Positions 5,607-55,381 of a DNA stretch of 64,000 bases are shown here, piece after piece (position 1 is the stretch's first letter; each line of letters opens with the position of its first letter). Made by a program: the position numbers and the translations under genes. The notes under the pieces were generated by a model. It saw only the letters and a list, made by a program, of their open reading frames with translations, made no database searches and was not told the DNA's origin. Location: the IMG/VR virus record IMGVR_UViG_3300020576_006124, positions 1 through 64,000 of that record. One strand, 5' to 3'. The DNA comes from a virus (taxonomy: Duplodnaviria > Caudoviricetes).

Positions 5607-5688
5607 GTCTCCCAGTAATGGCGTGGGTTTCTACCCCATATGTGCATAAAGGACGGCAGATGCAGGTTCGAATCCTGTCTGGGAGGCA
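5607..5688 (+). tRNA. non-canonical tRNA-like gene, anticodon TCT (Arg), lacking a D-arm
   Basis: Acceptor GTCTCCCAG/CTGGGAGGC; anticodon arm GTGGG-TTTCTAC-CCCAT; T-arm GCAGG-TTCGAAT-CCTGT; only 7 nt where the D-arm should be. Confidence 0.65.
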
Positions 5689-21786: not shown

Positions 21787-22307
21787 ATTCAAGTGAACAT
21801 GTAATTACCACTGTATCTGGTAAAAAGATAGATATCCTAAAACCAGATCCTAAAGATATTTCAATAGGAGATATTAGCCACGCTCTTTCAAGAATTAATA
21901 GATATAATTCTCAAATAAAGGGCTTCTGGTCTGTAGCCCAACATTCATTGCTTTTAGCAAGCAAGAATTCAGATCCTGATGTTGCCCTAATAGCTCTTCT
22001 ACATGACGCCTCAGAGGCTTTTCTTGGAGATGTAATCTCTCCCCTGAAAACCTTGCTTCCCGCTTATAAAGGAATCGAGAGCGAATTTTCCAGAGTAATC
22101 TATCAAAAATACATCCCTAATGTTAAATTAAAAAATCTTGGGATAGTACATGAACAAGATATTAACCTACGTAAAGATGAAATTAGATGGTTTAGAGAGG
22201 GAGCTAAAATGAGTGCTAAGTCTTATCCTTTTTACCTTTATAACTCCTCACCAGAAACTATTGAGTTAGAATTTTTGAAGACTTTCTGTAGCCTAAAAGG
22301 AATCTAA
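21783..22307 (+). CDS. YfbR-like HD-domain 5'-deoxynucleotidase
   Basis: DI.HALS.INRY, SVAQHS, ALLHDASEAFLGDV.SPLK. Confidence 0.88.
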   Translation: MNSSEHVITTVSGKKIDILKPDPKDISIGDISHALSRINRYNSQIKGFWSVAQHSLLLASKNSDPDVALIALLHDASEAFLGDVISPLKTLLPAYKGIESEFSRVIYQKYIPNVKLKNLGIVHEQDINLRKDEIRWFREGAKMSAKSYPFYLYNSSPETIELEFLKTFCSLKGI

Positions 22308-22315
22308 AAAACCCT

Positions 22316-22615: not shown

Positions 22616-22791
22616 ACGACACAATCAAATTCTGTGGATGCACAGCAGACAAGTTTGGAAATACTTCTGGAGCAAAATTCCAAGACCAACAGTATGGAAG
22701 AGGGAATAGAGTACATACTCTATTAGGGGATAAAAGCCTAGGCTCATGCTCAGTTTGTGGCAAAAGCCCTACAAATAAGGTGAAAAAGTAA
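22612..22791 (+). CDS. small Zn-binding phage protein (59 aa, absent from the ORF track)
   Basis: Hand translation MNDTIKFCGC...QDQQYGRGNRVH...CSVCGK...; ATGA-coupled to the upstream gene. Confidence 0.7.
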   Translation: MNDTIKFCGCTADKFGNTSGAKFQDQQYGRGNRVHTLLGDKSLGSCSVCGKSPTNKVKK

Positions 22792-22802
22792 TTTTTTAGT
22801 TT

Positions 22803-23033
22803 TGGGTTCTCCTGGTAAGGAACCCATCTCCTAACGAGCGCGAGGCAAGAAAGGGGTGCCTTTGGAAGTATCTCAGTCTTCCTTTGGGTCTCTGTAGACC
22901 AAGATCTAACGAATGGGATCTTGCACCCCCAACTAAATTCTTCTCGTTAGACACATACGGGCTTTGTCGTTTAGCATCATTCTAAGACTTTACCTCTAGG
23001 GGTAAAACGGAGGAGAATACCCTCCCTGGCCCA
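22803..23033 (+). ncRNA. structured RNA with two tandem four-way junctions
   Basis: CTAACGAG/CTCGTTAG stalk; GGGGTGC/GCACCCC closes three hairpins; GGGC/GCCC closes three more. Confidence 0.6.
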
Positions 23034-23231
23034 TCAAAACTTAATGAAAACTCAAAAATGCCCCTACTGTGAAAGATTAGTAGAAAAAAATAGGCAGTGA
23101 GACAAATCCATTAAAACTGCCCATAAAAGTAGAATCTACTCCTGAAAATCCAGGGGGAGAAATAATACCGATTAGATTCACTAAGAATTTACCTTGTGGA
23201 TGTGTTAATATAGGTAAGATTTAAACAGAAT

Positions 23232-23965
23232 AAACCCTTTGTTTGAAGGTTTTGGGAGGTCTAGCTTCCAAGGTAACTTGTTGCCTAAAGATCATCTGTG
23301 GAGACACAGAAAAAGGTATCTTTTCTCTAAAGGTATCGCTTCAGATTGAAGACACCTAGACAAGCCTAAGCTGAAACTTTACGTAAAAGTGAAGATAACT
23401 CAGTAGCCGCACCCTCACAGGGACAAACCGGAAGAGTGGGGGTGTAGGTGATGGAGAAGCATTGAAGGGTAGGACAAGGTTCGAGGCGTAGTAAACCTAG
23501 AGCTTTGATCCAGGTAAAAGGTGAAAACTTGCAAAAACAGGTTGGAGTCTTGAATCCAGTCACTTGTAACTAACGAGTGTAACAGGTAGTAGCGTATTTC
23601 TCTGGACAAAATTCAGGGGATCGGTAAGCCAAGCACTACCTGAGAGAGAAAAATCCAAGAAAATAGAACCTTGAAAGTTCGAAAAAAGCAAAAGACTTGG
23701 CCTACTCCAAAGAAAACTGCCTTTACTCTTTGAAAAAATAAGAGATCAGATCCTCGCAAGGGATTTTGAAAGGTTGAAATAATCCTTGATGGGTAACTAG
23801 AACCTATTGTGGAATAAAAACAGCCTAGCATTTGGAGATAGAAAGATTCAGCTAGTTTTAAAACTAGCGGCAGTTACCTGCATCCTACCTAGAAATAGAG
23901 AGGGGACAAGACCAAGAACAAATAATTTGGTTGAAAGTCAGGATAAGACCTTAGTCTAGGGGTTT
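23232..23965 (+). ncRNA. large structured ncRNA (GOLLD-like)
   Basis: No plus-strand ORF; 5' and 3' ends pair; long-range helices CAGGTAGT/ACTACCTG, GCCAAG/CTTGGC, AACTGCC/GGCAGTT; GNRA-capped hairpins. Confidence 0.7.
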
Positions 23966-24014
23966 TAAAAGAGAGAAATTCTCTCAAAGATTAATTTGGA
24001 GCCTATGTGAGAAA

Positions 24015-24347
24015 ATGTATAAGCTGGAAAATGACAATTTAAGGTTATGTTACCATTACAGCTTCTCTAATTCAGATCTACTTATAGACCACATTTTTAT
24101 TTCTCATCAGAACGAAAGCATTTTCGAACGGGATGTCTATTTCTTTAAATCTTCCTTTTCATATTCTGGGCCTAAAATCATTTCATCATGCCTCCCCGAG
24201 CTGAACATACTTGAAAATACTCTCTTTATAAAAGGGGATAGGCCCGAAAAAGACAATTTAAATCTTTTACCTATGGGACTTACTATTGACCTTACTACTA
24301 TGTCAAGCTTCAGACTTTCTATTCTAGAAGCTTTAAGGCAATGTTAG
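24015..24347 (+). CDS. MYxL paralogue family member 1
   Basis: MYKLEND...HQ...S..LPE...LFIKG...ILEALR. Confidence 0.7.
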   Translation: MYKLENDNLRLCYHYSFSNSDLLIDHIFISHQNESIFERDVYFFKSSFSYSGPKIISSCLPELNILENTLFIKGDRPEKDNLNLLPMGLTIDLTTMSSFRLSILEALRQC

Positions 24348-24348
24348 A

Positions 24349-24660
24349 ATGTACCGGTTAGCTAGGGATCCTTTAGTCTTATCTTACGACTATAAAAATC
24401 ATCACTGTTTTATACAACATCAGGATGATAGAGTCTTTATAAGGGGGAACTTTAGATTTAAAAGAGCTTCTAACGGTATTTTGTACTCTTTATCTTCGTG
24501 CGCCTACCCCACCTTTCTCCCGAATGAAAGAGTACTTTTTATAAGAGGAACAATGAGAAGTAGGGATTCTAAATATATCATCCTTCCTTCTTCTGAAGTT
24601 TTACACAATGTAAAAATTACAGTACTAGAGTGTTTAAGAGGTTTAAGATGTATCAATTAA
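24349..24660 (+). CDS. MYxL paralogue family member 2
   Basis: MYRLARDP...HQ...S..YP...LFIRG...TVLECLR. Confidence 0.7.
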   Translation: MYRLARDPLVLSYDYKNHHCFIQHQDDRVFIRGNFRFKRASNGILYSLSSCAYPTFLPNERVLFIRGTMRSRDSKYIILPSSEVLHNVKITVLECLRGLRCIN

Positions 24661-24998
24661 TTTCTGATCCACTTGAGTTATCTTATACTTGGGAGTTCTT
24701 AAAAGAAGGTATTGCCACTAAGAGAATAGTAATCACAAGACAGAACTCAAAAAAGTTCGTAAGAGGTAGTGGTGTCTTTCTGAAGAAAGATATATTATTT
24801 AAAGGTAGCTTTGCTGTAGTGTCCTTTGATTACCCAGAAATAGAGAGTGTTGATGGAATACTTTATCTAAGGGGTGCGAATTCTACTTTAGATCTTAAAA
24901 ATGCCCTTTGCCCTGGTTACTCTGAATCTTTCTTTTTTGAAGATTTAATACTTCTTAAAAGAACGGTACTGGGGCTGGTGAGGATTGAGAATGTATAA
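24648..24998 (+). CDS. MYxL paralogue family member 3 (start moved to MYQL)
   Basis: MYQLISDP...RQ...S..YPE...LYLRG...TVLGLVR. Confidence 0.7.
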   Translation: MYQLISDPLELSYTWEFLKEGIATKRIVITRQNSKKFVRGSGVFLKKDILFKGSFAVVSFDYPEIESVDGILYLRGANSTLDLKNALCPGYSESFFFEDLILLKRTVLGLVRIENV

Positions 24999-25341
24999 TT
25001 TAACGAAAGATCCATTGCTTCTTACATATAGTTATATGTTCGATTTTAATGAAAATTTAATGCTAGATAGAATAACTATTATCAATCAAGAACTCCCCCC
25101 ATATAATAATAAGTTTTCTTTTTATTGGAGAGGATATCATCTTATATCTAAAGAGCACCCAGCTATTTATATAGAAATGAAGATTTTATACCTTAGAGGA
25201 GAAGATGTATTAGAAAACTACGCAAATATTCTTAATTGGATCTACTACAACCCTTTAAACAAAAGAATTGTCTCTTTAATCCACATAAATCCTTTTAAGG
25301 AGACTATTTTAGAGTTTTTAAGGGATCTTTCTAAGAAGTAG
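24991..25341 (+). CDS. MYxL paralogue family member 4 (start moved to MYNL)
   Basis: MYNLTKDP...NQ...S..HP...LYLRG...TILEFLR. Confidence 0.7.
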   Translation: MYNLTKDPLLLTYSYMFDFNENLMLDRITIINQELPPYNNKFSFYWRGYHLISKEHPAIYIEMKILYLRGEDVLENYANILNWIYYNPLNKRIVSLIHINPFKETILEFLRDLSKK

Positions 25342-25343
25342 TC

Positions 25344-25712
25344 ATGTACGAATTAATCAAAGATCCAGTAATTCTATCCTACAAATTGGATTTTAATTCT
25401 CTACTTTGTAGGGAAATCAATGTAGCCCATCAAGACACTTCGTTAATTACAAGAGATAATTTTTATTTTATCGGGTTATTAGAAGTAGAAAATAGATTAC
25501 GTTCTTATTTAGTTTTGACTCAAAAGTACCCTGAAATCTCCACTTATTTTAAGTCTCACTCCCATACTCGTACCCTAATAGTAGTGCATTTGAGGGGGAG
25601 TATTTTAGATAAAGACTTTACCCCTTTGAACAAGGAACCTTTTAACTTTTATGAAACATCCTTAATTAAGCAAGCTATTCTTTTACTTTTGAGGCAACCG
25701 CTAGATGTATAA
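25344..25712 (+). CDS. MYxL paralogue family member 5
   Basis: MYELIKDP...HQ...YPE...HLRG...AILLLLR. Confidence 0.7.
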   Translation: MYELIKDPVILSYKLDFNSLLCREINVAHQDTSLITRDNFYFIGLLEVENRLRSYLVLTQKYPEISTYFKSHSHTRTLIVVHLRGSILDKDFTPLNKEPFNFYETSLIKQAILLLLRQPLDV

Positions 25713-26106
25713 ACTAAATCTTGATCCTATTGTAACCTTCTTTCTGAACAATGGGGTTTTACGTACTATAAAGGGACCCCTTTTTCCTAAAGTTATTCCT
25801 AATGATCAAATGAAATTAATAGGTAGATCTGACGAAGAATATATTTCTCTACACTTTTACTCTATAAGCGATATTTGTATACATTTCAATTTAGGTTGGG
25901 AGATGGCCTGTAGTCAAGCAGCGGGGAATATTGAAGAAGCGTCAGACTTTGGGGAGTATTTACTTAAAGGTTTAATGTGGTACTCAATAGCTTTAAACAG
26001 AGCCGTACTCGTCCCAGAATCATTAAGTATTTCAGGTATTAGACCATTAGAAGACTTTGTTTGGTTTAAAAATAGTACTTTTGGGGGTGATGTTTGTACA
26101 GTCTAA
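25705..26106 (+). CDS. protein with MYKL..DP N-terminus but an unrelated body
   Basis: MYKLNLDP start; lacks the YP/RG core of its neighbours. Confidence 0.6.
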   Translation: MYKLNLDPIVTFFLNNGVLRTIKGPLFPKVIPNDQMKLIGRSDEEYISLHFYSISDICIHFNLGWEMACSQAAGNIEEASDFGEYLLKGLMWYSIALNRAVLVPESLSISGIRPLEDFVWFKNSTFGGDVCTV

Positions 26107-26453
26107 TTAGGGATGATTTAGAATTTACATATCATTACAAGTTTCAAAAAGAAATTCTCTTAGGAGCTCAAAAGATTAGAATTACCTTTCAGGTTGAAGA
26201 TCTAAGAAATTGTAAAGAAGAAAAAGCAAGATTTCTTTATACCGATAAAAACACTAAGTTAAGTATTATATCTGACTGTTATCCAGAGTTCAGAGATCCT
26301 AGTATTTATATTAGGGGCAGAGACTTGGAGTTGGATCACTCTCTTATTGTATTGGATAGACCTTATACCACTATCTCTACCAAAATAAAATCTACCAAAA
26401 TAAAAAAAACAATCTTAGGGTTTCTAAGGGAAAGAGAATTAAAAAAATGTTAG
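26094..26453 (+). CDS. MYxL paralogue family member 6
   Basis: TTG start; MYSLIRDD...FQ...S..YPE...IYIRG...TILGFLR. Confidence 0.7.
   Translation: MYSLIRDDLEFTYHYKFQKEILLGAQKIRITFQVEDLRNCKEEKARFLYTDKNTKLSIISDCYPEFRDPSIYIRGRDLELDHSLIVLDRPYTTISTKIKSTKIKKTILGFLRERELKKC
26376..26405 (+). repeat. in-frame 15-bp tandem duplication
   Basis: TCTACCAAAATAAAA twice (STKIK-STKIK). Confidence 0.85.
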
Positions 26454-52877: not shown

Positions 52878-53177
52878 ATGAGGGAGAACAGGACATTGAG
52901 GTCGGGAGAACCATGCCGACACCCTGGGTGCCTAAGTCACATTTCGCACTCTTGCGAGTGCTGTGGGCGCGTAGGTGGGAGAAGCCTACGAGACCTTTTG
53001 CTGCATGAACGGGTTGATGTTAGGTGGTACGGTCAAAATGACTACTTGGGGCCATATGTATTCGAGGTGGACCTACATGAAGGCGACGTATTTTGTTCGC
53101 AGGGGCTCATTGTTGGGTCTATTCGCGACGTGGCCTCATGGCGATTACATGTGCCAAAAGAGCTGGCGGACCTATGA
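52878..53177 (+). CDS. Zn-finger protein with C-terminal 'D..SWR' domain
   Basis: PCRHPGCLSHISHSCECCGR; RDVASWRL. Confidence 0.6.
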   Translation: MRENRTLRSGEPCRHPGCLSHISHSCECCGRVGGRSLRDLLLHERVDVRWYGQNDYLGPYVFEVDLHEGDVFCSQGLIVGSIRDVASWRLHVPKELADL

Positions 53178-53263
53178 CGAGCAGGAACAAACGCCTACCC
53201 CATGTAAGACCAGGACGCTGGGCCGCGTTTGGGTCAAGCCCCTGGGAGTGAGAAGAAAGAACG

Positions 53264-54193
53264 ATGAATATTGGAACAAGTTGGCATAGCTACCCAAAGA
53301 TTTACAACGTAGGCCACGCCTATCTGGAAGGTTTTTTTGATGGATCGTCCTGGTTGTCGGTTGAAGAAAAGGTAGATGGATCACAGTTTAGCTTTGGTGT
53401 ATTCGGGGGCGAGATTAAGTGTCGCTCGAAAGGCCAGGAATTGATTGTTGAGCGTCCCGAAAAGATGTTTGCCCGCGCGGTGGAGTCTGTCAAAGAGATT
53501 GCCCATCTGCTTCGGGATGGTTGGACCTATCGGGGTGAGTATCTACAATCCCCCAAGCACAACACTCTCAAGTATGATCGCGTGCCGAACCTACACATCA
53601 TCGGTTTCGACGTGTCTCCCACCGAAGAGCAATATTTGATCTACGATGACAAAACTGAGGAGTTTGCTCGTATCGGGCTTGAGGTTGTTCCTCGCATCTG
53701 GCAAGGCACGCACCCTGACCCCAAATCTCTCATGGATACCGAGAGCATTCTCGGCGGATCGAAGATTGAGGGGCTTGTGTTCAAGCGACATGCGAACCCA
53801 CTGTACGGGCCCGACAAAAAGGTGTTGCTTGCCAAGCACGTTTCGGAGGCGTTCAAGGAGGTCCATAGCAAGGAGTGGAAGAGAACTAACCAGACCGGAA
53901 AGGACTTCGTGGGCGCTCTTGCCGAACGGTATTGCGCTGAGGGCCGATGGGCCAAAGCCGTCCAGCGGCTCACGGAATCAGGCGTGGCGACGAACACACC
54001 ACAAGACATTGCAGCACTGATCGCTGAGGTTCAGCGTGACATTAAAGATGAGTGCCGCGAAGAGATCATCAAAGAGTTACTTTCCTATGCCTGGCCCCAT
54101 ATTGCCCGAGCATCTGTGCGCGGTTTGCCGGACTGGTACAAGAACCGACTCATGGAATCCGCCATTGGGTCCATGCCCCAGGAGGTCGAATGA
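53264..54193 (+). CDS. Rnl2-like ATP-dependent RNA ligase
   Basis: Motif I EEKVDGSQ, RGE, GFDV, IEGLVFK, AKHV; YPKI N-terminus. Confidence 0.85.
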   Translation: MNIGTSWHSYPKIYNVGHAYLEGFFDGSSWLSVEEKVDGSQFSFGVFGGEIKCRSKGQELIVERPEKMFARAVESVKEIAHLLRDGWTYRGEYLQSPKHNTLKYDRVPNLHIIGFDVSPTEEQYLIYDDKTEEFARIGLEVVPRIWQGTHPDPKSLMDTESILGGSKIEGLVFKRHANPLYGPDKKVLLAKHVSEAFKEVHSKEWKRTNQTGKDFVGALAERYCAEGRWAKAVQRLTESGVATNTPQDIAALIAEVQRDIKDECREEIIKELLSYAWPHIARASVRGLPDWYKNRLMESAIGSMPQEVE

Positions 54194-54967
54194 AGATCAC
54201 CGTCCGCCAGGCATTCAAGAAGGCGTATGGGCCGATCCCAGATGGGGCTACGTGCCATTTGGCAAACTGGCCCGGTCCTACTTTGCCCCAATTTATGAAC
54301 ATTGAGCCTACCATATGGGAAGACGGCTGGCCTGAATCCCTGGGAACACGCGAGGACGGTAGCCCTGGAGTAATGGAATATCCCTTTGGCCCCGACATCT
54401 CAGATCGCGACGCAGAAGCCTTCCGGGGTTTATTCGGGGACGATTACGACAAAGCCCTAGATGGGCTGTTGGGGGCTGAATGACTTGGTCCGAGGCGATT
54501 GCCACTTTGGGGGTGGTTGGTCTATTTGGACTCCTTGTATGGACAAGCCACAGGGAGAACATGGCAAGATATGCTCTCTTACAGAAGACCGTGGAACTAG
54601 AGGAGATATTGAAGGATGCACCAAAGCAGGTGAGCGTCGGCAAGAAGTGCATCGCACGAGGAGTGATACGCAAAGTAGCACCACCGGTAACATTGGAGGA
54701 TGAGAATGTCTAAGCAGAGTGTGGAGGTGCCCCGTGGCTAAACACGACCTCAAGATCAGGCAGATCACCGCTGTAAGCGTTCCAGAGAACTGCTTTACGC
54801 AATGCGAGGCGATCCTATTTGCCTTGACCGACGATGGCAGGCTCTTTCACACAACCAACAGGGACATGGGGGCCGTTTGGTACGAGGTAGGGCAGCCTTA
54901 CCTGACGGTCGATGAAAGAGACGCCATAGCCCCCCTCATGGCTGAGCTGGAGGTGCCCCGTGGCTAA
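54190..54967 (+). other. three small genes in the GC-rich block (54190-54483, 54480-54713, 54734-54967)
   Basis: GGAGG RBS before 54190 and 54734; ATGA coupling at 54190 and 54480. Confidence 0.6.
54722..54967 (+). repeat. 20-bp direct repeat flanking one gene
   Basis: TGGAGGTGCCCCGTGGCTAA at 54722-54741 and 54948-54967. Confidence 0.9.
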
Positions 54968-55381
54968 GAAGCTGTACGGGCAAGTCGGGCGCAACGGGGA
55001 GTTGCATTGGGTGGAAGCCTCTTCCGCTAAGTGGATCGCCGGGAGAATGTGGTTTGTGTACAATGCCCCCAACTGGGTCTTTTCCTATGAGAGTCCTGGG
55101 GGCTTTATACACTTTTCATAATAAGTACTCCTGGAAGTGTTATCAACTAACACCAAAAATCCTTAGTTCTACTCAGAAGTTAAAACTAAATATTAATGGA
55201 GAATGCCAAAACGGAGAAGTAGTTAGCACAGAAGGGATTTTCAAGATCATTACTGATGGAAATTTGCTCTTATCCCCTGAAGATATTGAATCTTGGAGAC
55301 TTGTTTTTTCTTCTACGACTTAACCACTAAAAAGTAGTGTAAAAATTTAGAGGATTTCTTATACTTCTACAGAACCGGAAA

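Follow-up and report, generated by a model that had tools for sequence, protein, structure and literature searches.

The plus strand of an uncultured phage, recovered from river and freshwater samples, carries at positions 23254–23965 an RNA gene of about 710 nt that we identify as a GOLLD RNA, and its product would, by analogy with other members of that family, assemble into a cage. We put the probability of this reading at about 0.88. The window (the whole stretch of DNA that was analyzed, 64,000 nt) makes up the start of an IMG/VR virus record that is 197,239 nt long. The completeness of the record is estimated at 85% by CheckV, and it contains phage-family genes (PHROGs hits) and ten tRNAs. 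Very few RNAs in nature, GOLLD among them, are known to form protein-free cages. The RNA described here is a diverged but genuine GOLLD, and thus a further member of an established family and not a new kind of RNA.

Identification of the RNA

A first-pass annotation of the window had proposed a GOLLD-like or new giant RNA at 23232–23965, based on size and architecture only. In an Infernal scan against Rfam with E-value reporting, the full GOLLD model (RF02032, positions 1–416 of 416) aligned to 23582–23963 on the plus strand with a score of 107.5 bits and an E-value of 6.5e-29, and the same placement was obtained with an E-value of 2.0e-30 in a second search. Among all 4227 Rfam families, this was the sole significant match in 22700–24200, where no other family appeared at E < 0.5. 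The ROOL, OLE, group I and group II intron models, against which a check had been suggested, gave no matches in this region even at E-values up to 10; a hit to one of the intron models had been named as grounds for reclassifying the RNA. The RF02032 alignment thus supports the GOLLD-like assignment and decides for GOLLD over a new giant RNA.

A scan of the window at the Rfam gathering thresholds reported tRNAs only and no GOLLD. The standard scan misses this copy because its 107.5 bits fall below the RF02032 gathering cut-off of 150 bits, which is an operational annotation threshold and not a structural feature. The score was also lower than those of all 14 GOLLDs used for comparison (L120 and L187–L199; 158–312 bits, all above the threshold), which were collected by scanning viral contigs for motifs and then searching the records they came from with RF02032. 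Despite the low score, the RNA was treated as a diverged GOLLD, since the E-value and the independent features described below agree. RF02032 covers only the 3′ domain of GOLLD (P14–P27), and the part of the proposed RNA from 23232 to 23581 therefore corresponds to the variable 5′ domain.

The annotation had also described the region as the longest ORF-free stretch on the plus strand of the window, which is correct when ORFs of at least 60 aa are counted (22616–24014, 1399 nt). Only short ORFs, on either strand, are found inside this stretch; none is longer than 72 aa and none has a family match. The RNA is AT-rich (39% G+C), and CTAG is about twice as frequent in it as in the window, a count that is matched by other 1-kb stretches. 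On the plus strand, 23254–23965 folds at −203.4 kcal/mol, compared to −173.2 ± 5.2 kcal/mol for dinucleotide shuffles (z = −5.8), so that the proposed structure exceeds chance, while the minus strand of the same region gave z = −1.3. Only the plus strand thus folds unusually well. The 300 nt upstream fold no better than chance (z = −1.76).

The 3′ domain and its long-range pairings

The 3′ domain (23582–23965) starts with an element at 23582–23643 that, by the RF02032 alignment, is probably P14. It consists of an outer helix, formed by CAGGTAGT (23583–90) and ACTACCTG (23635–42) and equivalent to the first helix of the Rfam model, and an inner hairpin (23598–23620), the helix of which is paired at 9/9 positions. 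An A-rich variable linker of about 41 nt follows (23644–23684, by the RF02032 alignment), in which a tRNA search found no tRNA. Then comes the most conserved motif of the family, AAAGCAAAAG, and directly after it CUUGGC (23696–701), the two together occupying 23685–23701. This CUUGGC is the 3′ strand of a long-range pairing, PK-A, whose 5′ strand, GCCAAG (23628–33), lies in the internal loop of the first element. Through PK-A, the internal loop that immediately precedes the conserved CAC is paired with the nucleotides that immediately follow GCAAAAGN. PK-A has 7 bp in 14/14 comparison GOLLDs, with sequences such as GGGGAAG/CUUUCCC, UGGCAAG/CUUGCCA and GACGGAC/GUCCGUC, and 6 bp (6/7) in the window, where both strands are changed and CC/GG stands in place of the GG/CC of the majority.

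The bracketed helix of the Rfam model corresponds to a 7-bp long-range helix, CUCCAAA (23705–11) with UUUGGAG (23831–37), that encloses hairpins at 23726–44 and 23750–64, the latter with the GCAA loop that had been noted before, and a multi-stem at 23772–23825. The L21-type hairpin (23789–23807) has a 7-nt loop, AACUAGA, that includes the self-complementary CUAG (23797–23800). Palindromes of 4–6 nt are found in 8/15 equivalent L21 loops (GGCC in five, and CGCG, UUGCAA and CUAG). A second long-range pairing, PK-B, connects AACUGCC (23715–23721) to GGCAGUU (23869–75), which follows the hairpin GCUAGU-UUUAAA-ACUAGC (23851–68) in the segment 23851–23875. PK-B is conserved across all 15 sequences with varied strands (GCGCC/GGCGU, GGUGAC/GUCAC, GAAGC/GCUUU; ACUGCC/GGCAGU in the window, 6–7 bp), a recurrence that can be read as covariation. 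The segment 23876–23942 is closed by a helix (23876–82/23937–42) around a GAAA hairpin (23883–23904) and a hairpin with a conserved A-rich loop, AACAAAUAA (23911–32). The last hairpin (23944–23965), of the P27 type, is made from UAAGACCUU and AGGGGUUU with the loop AGUCU; in the end pairing considered below, these nucleotides would serve as the 3′ side. In the solved structure, L27 is a tertiary hub (PMC12286853).

In a MAFFT alignment of the set (A2), several helices of the window were shifted out of register, and the pairings were therefore compared by anchored extraction instead. In PK-A, PK-B and the bracketed helix, the window sequence differs from the consensus on both strands while the pairing is kept. 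All helices and hairpins given in the first-pass annotation were found at their positions by string search. Its internal long-range helices, 23583–90/23635–42 and 23715–21/23869–75, are real and conserved family-wide, and the pseudoknot that it had proposed between 23628–33 and 23696–701 is PK-A itself, compensated in the window. Since PK-A and PK-B recur in the 14 other GOLLDs, the pairings picked out there were genuine conserved tertiary pairings of the family. At least one of the GOLLD “pseudoknots” predicted from covariation is an inter-chain bridge in the solved structure (PMC12286853), and on the sequence alone each of these pairings could lie within a chain or between chains.

Just past the RNA, a string search showed a further hairpin, GAGAGA-AAU-UCUCUC (23971–23985, plus strand), that may mark the 3′ end of the RNA or be a weak terminator. 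In the JGI assembly of the phage (L213), the substitution C23981T changes a G-C pair of this hairpin to G-U.

The 5′ domain

The 5′ domain (23254–23581) has a length of 328 nt, compared to 294–376 nt in the comparison set and about 300–420 nt expected of a GOLLD. This domain is known to vary in GOLLD (PMC12286853, PMC12990946). Eleven of the comparison GOLLDs share an opening (alignment A1) that comprises a 3-bp hairpin with a 6-nt loop, GCAUGG, pairing with a downstream CCAUGC, followed by a GNRA hairpin, GAAAGG and two more hairpins. The 3-bp stem is 100% paired and covaries at 3/3 pairs, the GNRA hairpin is likewise 100% paired with covariation at 5/5 pairs, and the pairing of the loop with the downstream 6-mer is 98.5% paired. 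Over the whole of A1, 98.6% of the cells are paired and 15/19 pairs change on both sides; shuffle and slid controls came nowhere near these values.

The opening in the window is canonical. Its first hairpin, s0 (23254–23269), is present in the predicted minimum free energy (MFE) fold; it has the stem GGGAG/CUUCC and the loop GUCUAG (23259–64), and comes after a U-run like that of the canonical GOLLDs. The conserved second hairpin is UCUGUG-GAGA-CACAGA (23295–23310), identified through alignment to the model R1 (see below); this GAGA-capped hairpin had already been recognized in the first reading of the sequence. Two hairpins at 23315–37 and 23339–51 (together 23315–23351; R1 alignment and MFE fold) take the order of the canonical third and fourth. 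They are followed at 23356–23366 by CUAGAC (23356–61), which makes 6/6 pairs with the s0 loop, and then by AAGCC, an order shared with canonical GOLLDs (CCAGACAAGGC in L198). An extra hairpin, AGGUAA-CUUG-UUGCCU (23271–23286), was seen in the MFE fold and by alignment to the canonical 5′ domains, and has an equivalent at that point in 0/14 comparison GOLLDs. Because the s0 hairpin, the 6/6 loop pairing and the AAGCC all lie at canonical places, the conserved core starts at 23254, downstream of the start at 23232 proposed at first.

R1, a covariance model of the 11 openings that was trained with the window left out, had its best match in 22800–24100 (1301 nt, filters off) at 23278–23372 on the plus strand, at the expected upstream distance (17.9 bits, E = 2.5e-4). 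Scaled to the whole window, the E-value becomes about 0.01, and a run of R1 over the whole window with default filters gave no match. On held-out GOLLDs, R1 scored 25.1 bits for L192 and found nothing at the expected place in L120 and nothing in L194. In the window, the R1 alignment picked a weaker first helix (4/6 pairs) than the hand alignment (s0, 23254–69), which is due to the extra hairpin at 23271–86. The distal part of the 5′ domain (23367–23581) is well folded and unalignable to the main GOLLD subgroup. The corresponding model, R2, had no match in the window, nor in L120, L192 or L194, all of which score above the Rfam threshold; since R2 fails in these bona fide GOLLDs, the distal 5′ domain does not define the family.

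In canonical GOLLDs (L187–L199; A1 columns 3–14 and 108–113), strong covariation is seen both in the 3-bp hairpin and in the pairing that takes up its entire loop. Formation of both an s0-type hairpin and its loop pairing within a single chain looks sterically hard, and one of the two may be an inter-chain contact in the cage. The s0 loop (23259–64) and the loop region of the last hairpin (23954–59) of the window RNA are both GUCUAG, and both are complementary to CUAGAC (23356–61). No such double relation was seen in the comparison GOLLDs checked by eye, and it may be due to chance.

The leader and the pairing of the ends

Directly upstream of the core, the leader at 23232–23254 contains two arms, AAACCCTT (23232–39) and AAGGTTTTG (23246–54), that are complementary to the 3′ end at 23944–65 (TAAGACCTT, 23944–52, and AGGGGTTT, 23958–65) and also to each other. 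The first-pass annotation had taken the two ends to pair. The complementarity is real, with a duplex energy of −18.9 kcal/mol for leader and 3′ end (z = −2.9), but a closing helix is not a feature of GOLLD: significant end pairing was found in 0/14 comparison GOLLDs (z from −1.4 to +1.8). The two arms of the end pairing are not independent, because the leader arms pair mutually and the last hairpin is built from the two 3′ arms. Since the closing helix would compete with this conserved hairpin, we regard it, and any use of it in the folded RNA, as unproven. A local leader hairpin is present in the predicted fold of the upstream region, and L120 has a similar AACCC...GGGTT hairpin immediately before its first hairpin. 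In a relative of the phage (see below), the substitution G23248A would weaken the end pairing unless compensated; the partner position lies outside the listed changes.

A possible extended −10 promoter element, TGTTAATAT, was seen by eye at 23203–23211 on the plus strand, and would put the start of the transcript near 23218–23220. It did not appear in the list from a consensus promoter scan because there is no fitting −35 element. Among the changes listed for the 96% identical relative, none falls inside this motif, the nearest being at 23200. The roughly 130 nt upstream of the core (23126–23253) are about 96% conserved in the relative, like the RNA itself, and show no folding beyond chance; the promoter (TGTTAATAT) and the leader hairpin may lie within them. 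A late-promoter motif was not enriched in the window (20 matches versus 17.5 expected).

Natural variants, relatives and transcription

The same phage is present in a Logan assembly, where it is identical, and in a JGI assembly with four SNPs, none of them within the RNA; the RNA is identical in the three assemblies. Identical pieces were also found in a river run (X4). A relative was found in a freshwater run (X6), a wastewater run (X8) and a sediment metatranscriptome (X11), of which X6 covers all stretches quoted here for the relative, while X8 and X11 contributed one contig each, inside the RNA. Parts of the stretch that were uncovered in the metagenome runs carry no evidential weight. The X6 relative is 92–96% identical over 23126–24068 and only 83–86% identical at 22166–22311 and 22918–23072.

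Eleven substitutions were listed for the relative in 23476–23748. Two of these (23530 U>C and 23539 A>G) form a compensatory pair that turns U-A into C-G in the hairpin at 23525–23544 of the distal 5′ domain. The others comprise six switches between A-U and G-U, two changes at unpaired positions and one whose partner lies outside the contig. In a test based on low-depth contigs, with 14 further differences outside the listing, a mean of 3.2 pairs were broken when the same changes were placed at random (P = 0.074 that at most one pair breaks), and a double-sided canonical change arose in 2.5% of the random trials (a chance of 0.025). Applied to the minus-strand fold, the same changes break four predicted pairs. 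The substitutions thus provide modest, independent support for a selected structure on the plus strand.

A GOLLD would be expected to appear as a discrete RNA with increasing levels in lytic growth. The metatranscriptome contributed a single contig of 229 nt from the 96% variant, which gives no strand or ends and could stem from DNA carry-over; such a contig from an RNA library does not prove transcription. We observe homology, strand, fold quality and conservation directly, and infer cage formation, stoichiometry, the ends of the transcript and the timing of its expression.

Searches for a full-length homologue of the window variant found none. Single-sequence nhmmer and blastn searches with the RNA against the comparison loci, the phage database and the metagenome hits returned nothing. 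A scan of viral contigs for the A-rich motif gave almost entirely chance matches, with one GOLLD in 49 records, at a different place. Scans with window-specific motifs gave zero matches in viral contigs and chance hits only in metagenome (12) and genome (2) contigs. A search via the neighboring proteins turned up no relatives, the closest dNMP phosphatase homologues being at most 53% identical, and an exact-protein look-up retrieved the same phage only.

Genomic context

No tRNA is located within 1.5 kb of the RNA or inside its 41-nt linker, and the nearest is a tRNA-Ser 4.2 kb upstream. Among the comparison loci, 11/14 have tRNAs within 1.5 kb, the exceptions being L120, L192 and L194, and 4/14 have a complete tRNA gene inside the linker (L187, Ile; L188 and L189, Gln; L193, Pro). 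The three tRNA-free loci are also those with divergent 5′ domains. One record (G064, a 345-kb phage) contains two separate GOLLD genes, L190 and L196, which score 223 and 176 bits and are about 81 kb apart.

The upstream neighbor of the RNA is a dNMP phosphatase-like gene. Directly downstream, at 24015–26453, are seven abutting small paralogous genes with pairwise identities of 28–40%. No Pfam or PHROGs family was assigned to them (five were scanned against PHROGs and two against Pfam), and relatives of these genes were not found within 1.5 kb of the 14 other GOLLD loci. Beyond 24068, which lies in the first paralogue, the freshwater relative diverges in sequence. A capsid candidate had no match in the phage database, and no host or taxon is therefore given.

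Elsewhere in the window, an island at 53000–55000 has 53–55% G+C in a genome of about 35% G+C, contains ORFs that overlap on both strands and includes an RNA ligase family gene (53264–54193; PF09414, E = 4e-14); it may be a recent acquisition. At 5609–5686, adjoining a 1.1-kb stretch of the plus strand that is free of ORFs, there is a weak Rfam tRNA match (31 bits, barely over the gathering score) for which ARAGORN made no call.

Discussion

Large structured RNAs with cage-like assemblies include ROOL, which also occurs in phages and forms 8-mer or 6-mer cages. ROOL resembles the RNA described here in being a large phage RNA with RNA-only cages and a disordered internal linker; it is unrelated in sequence and fold, and its model gave no match here at E-values up to 10. 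The solved GOLLD cages are a 14-mer (PMC12286853) and a 12-mer and a 10-mer (PMC12990946), their stoichiometry varies with the peripheral stems that each RNA carries (PMC12286853, PMC12990946), and the two halves of the cages are joined by self-kissing of L21 (PMC12286853, PMC12990946).

The env-38 GOLLD, an RNA of 833 nt that forms a 14-mer cage (PMC12286853), resembles the window RNA in its two-domain layout, its location in a phage, its canonical 5′ opening and its two covarying long-range pairings. The conserved 3′ cores of the two RNAs have in common the AAAGCAAAAG motif, the GCAA hairpin and the loops of the L27 type and the A-rich L26 type. Compared to env-38, the window RNA is about 120 nt shorter and AT-rich, has one L21-type hairpin instead of two, a short linker (≈41 nt), an unalignable distal 5′ domain and no nearby tRNA, and scores below the gathering cut-off. 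The Streptococcus agalactiae GOLLD (700 nt) forms a 12-mer, and its 3′ domain alone mainly a 10-mer (PMC12990946). It is similar in length to the window RNA (700 versus ≈710 nt) and also has a single L21 hairpin, but sits near tRNAs in a bacterial chromosome or prophage. Its sequence is too distant for direct alignment, and it was compared with the window RNA by description. P21b and some portions of the 5′ domain are missing from it, yet it still forms a cage, joined by L21 self-kissing (PMC12990946).

By analogy with these structures, the transcript would fold without protein into a 5′ cap domain and a 3′ ring domain, and copies of it would assemble through kissing loops and A-minor contacts into a closed, two-layered, dihedral homo-oligomeric nanocage. 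Its short, A-rich linker would face the interior, and the halves of the cage would be held together by the self-complementary CUAG loop, which fits the self-kissing of L21. A variation on this scheme is a tRNA-independent subclass of GOLLD, made up of this RNA and its freshwater relatives, in which the leader (23232–54) pairs with both strands of the last hairpin and closes the molecule, turning the L27 hub loop into an internal loop. We consider such a subclass doubtful, if worth keeping in mind; together with the extra 5′ hairpin, it could change the stoichiometry of the cage or allow the RNA to alternate between a closed and an open form.

We considered the possibility that the RNA belongs to a separate giant-RNA family, linked to GOLLD by no more than an ancestral 3′ core, with its own 5′ domain, an end-closing helix and perhaps a different assembly or action. 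Such a family would accommodate the RF02032 score below the cut-off, the lack of an R2 match together with the extra hairpin at 23271–86, an end complementarity (z = −2.9) reached by 0/14 GOLLDs, and the absence of tRNAs. However, the Rfam alignment spans the full model with an E-value of 6.5e-29 and the 5′ domain opens in the canonical way. Furthermore, the above-threshold L120, L192 and L194 equally fail R2 and are without tRNAs, which places these traits within the known variation of GOLLD, and variable 5′ domains have been described for the family (PMC12286853, PMC12990946). A separate family is therefore unlikely, and membership in GOLLD is the preferred reading.

A decaying, non-functional remnant of a GOLLD gene would account for the lowest Rfam score of the set and for the roughly one sixth of the model pairs that are non-standard in the cmscan alignment, but most of these pairs fall where the alignment is uncertain, and all conserved long-range pairings are intact via compensation. 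With a plus-strand fold at z = −5.8, a sequence that is identical in three assemblies and, in the relative, stronger conservation of the region than of its flanks and mostly structure-preserving changes, decay is very unlikely. It is scarcely credible that the region is a long leader, some other regulatory region or an unrecognized coding sequence in place of a stand-alone RNA gene: about 460 nt of additional non-coding DNA do lie upstream (22792–23253), the last part of which (23126–23253) is as well conserved as the RNA (96%), but this upstream stretch folds at chance level (z = −1.76), the ORFs of up to 72 aa on either strand are without family matches, and GOLLD homology accounts for 23254–23965.

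The copy described here is a genuine, diverged GOLLD that is compact, AT-rich and tRNA-free and has a short linker. Its conserved long-range pairings offer compensatory variants that arose in nature, and its palindromic kissing loop, CUAG, is new. These traits make it useful as an additional entry in covariation models and, being a simple construct, for studying the elements that set the stoichiometry of the cage, although by itself this copy opens no new question. Standard Rfam annotation misses diverged GOLLDs in large freshwater phages, of which this copy is an example, and the GOLLD family is thus probably wider, and its link to tRNA arrays looser, than the catalogues suggest.
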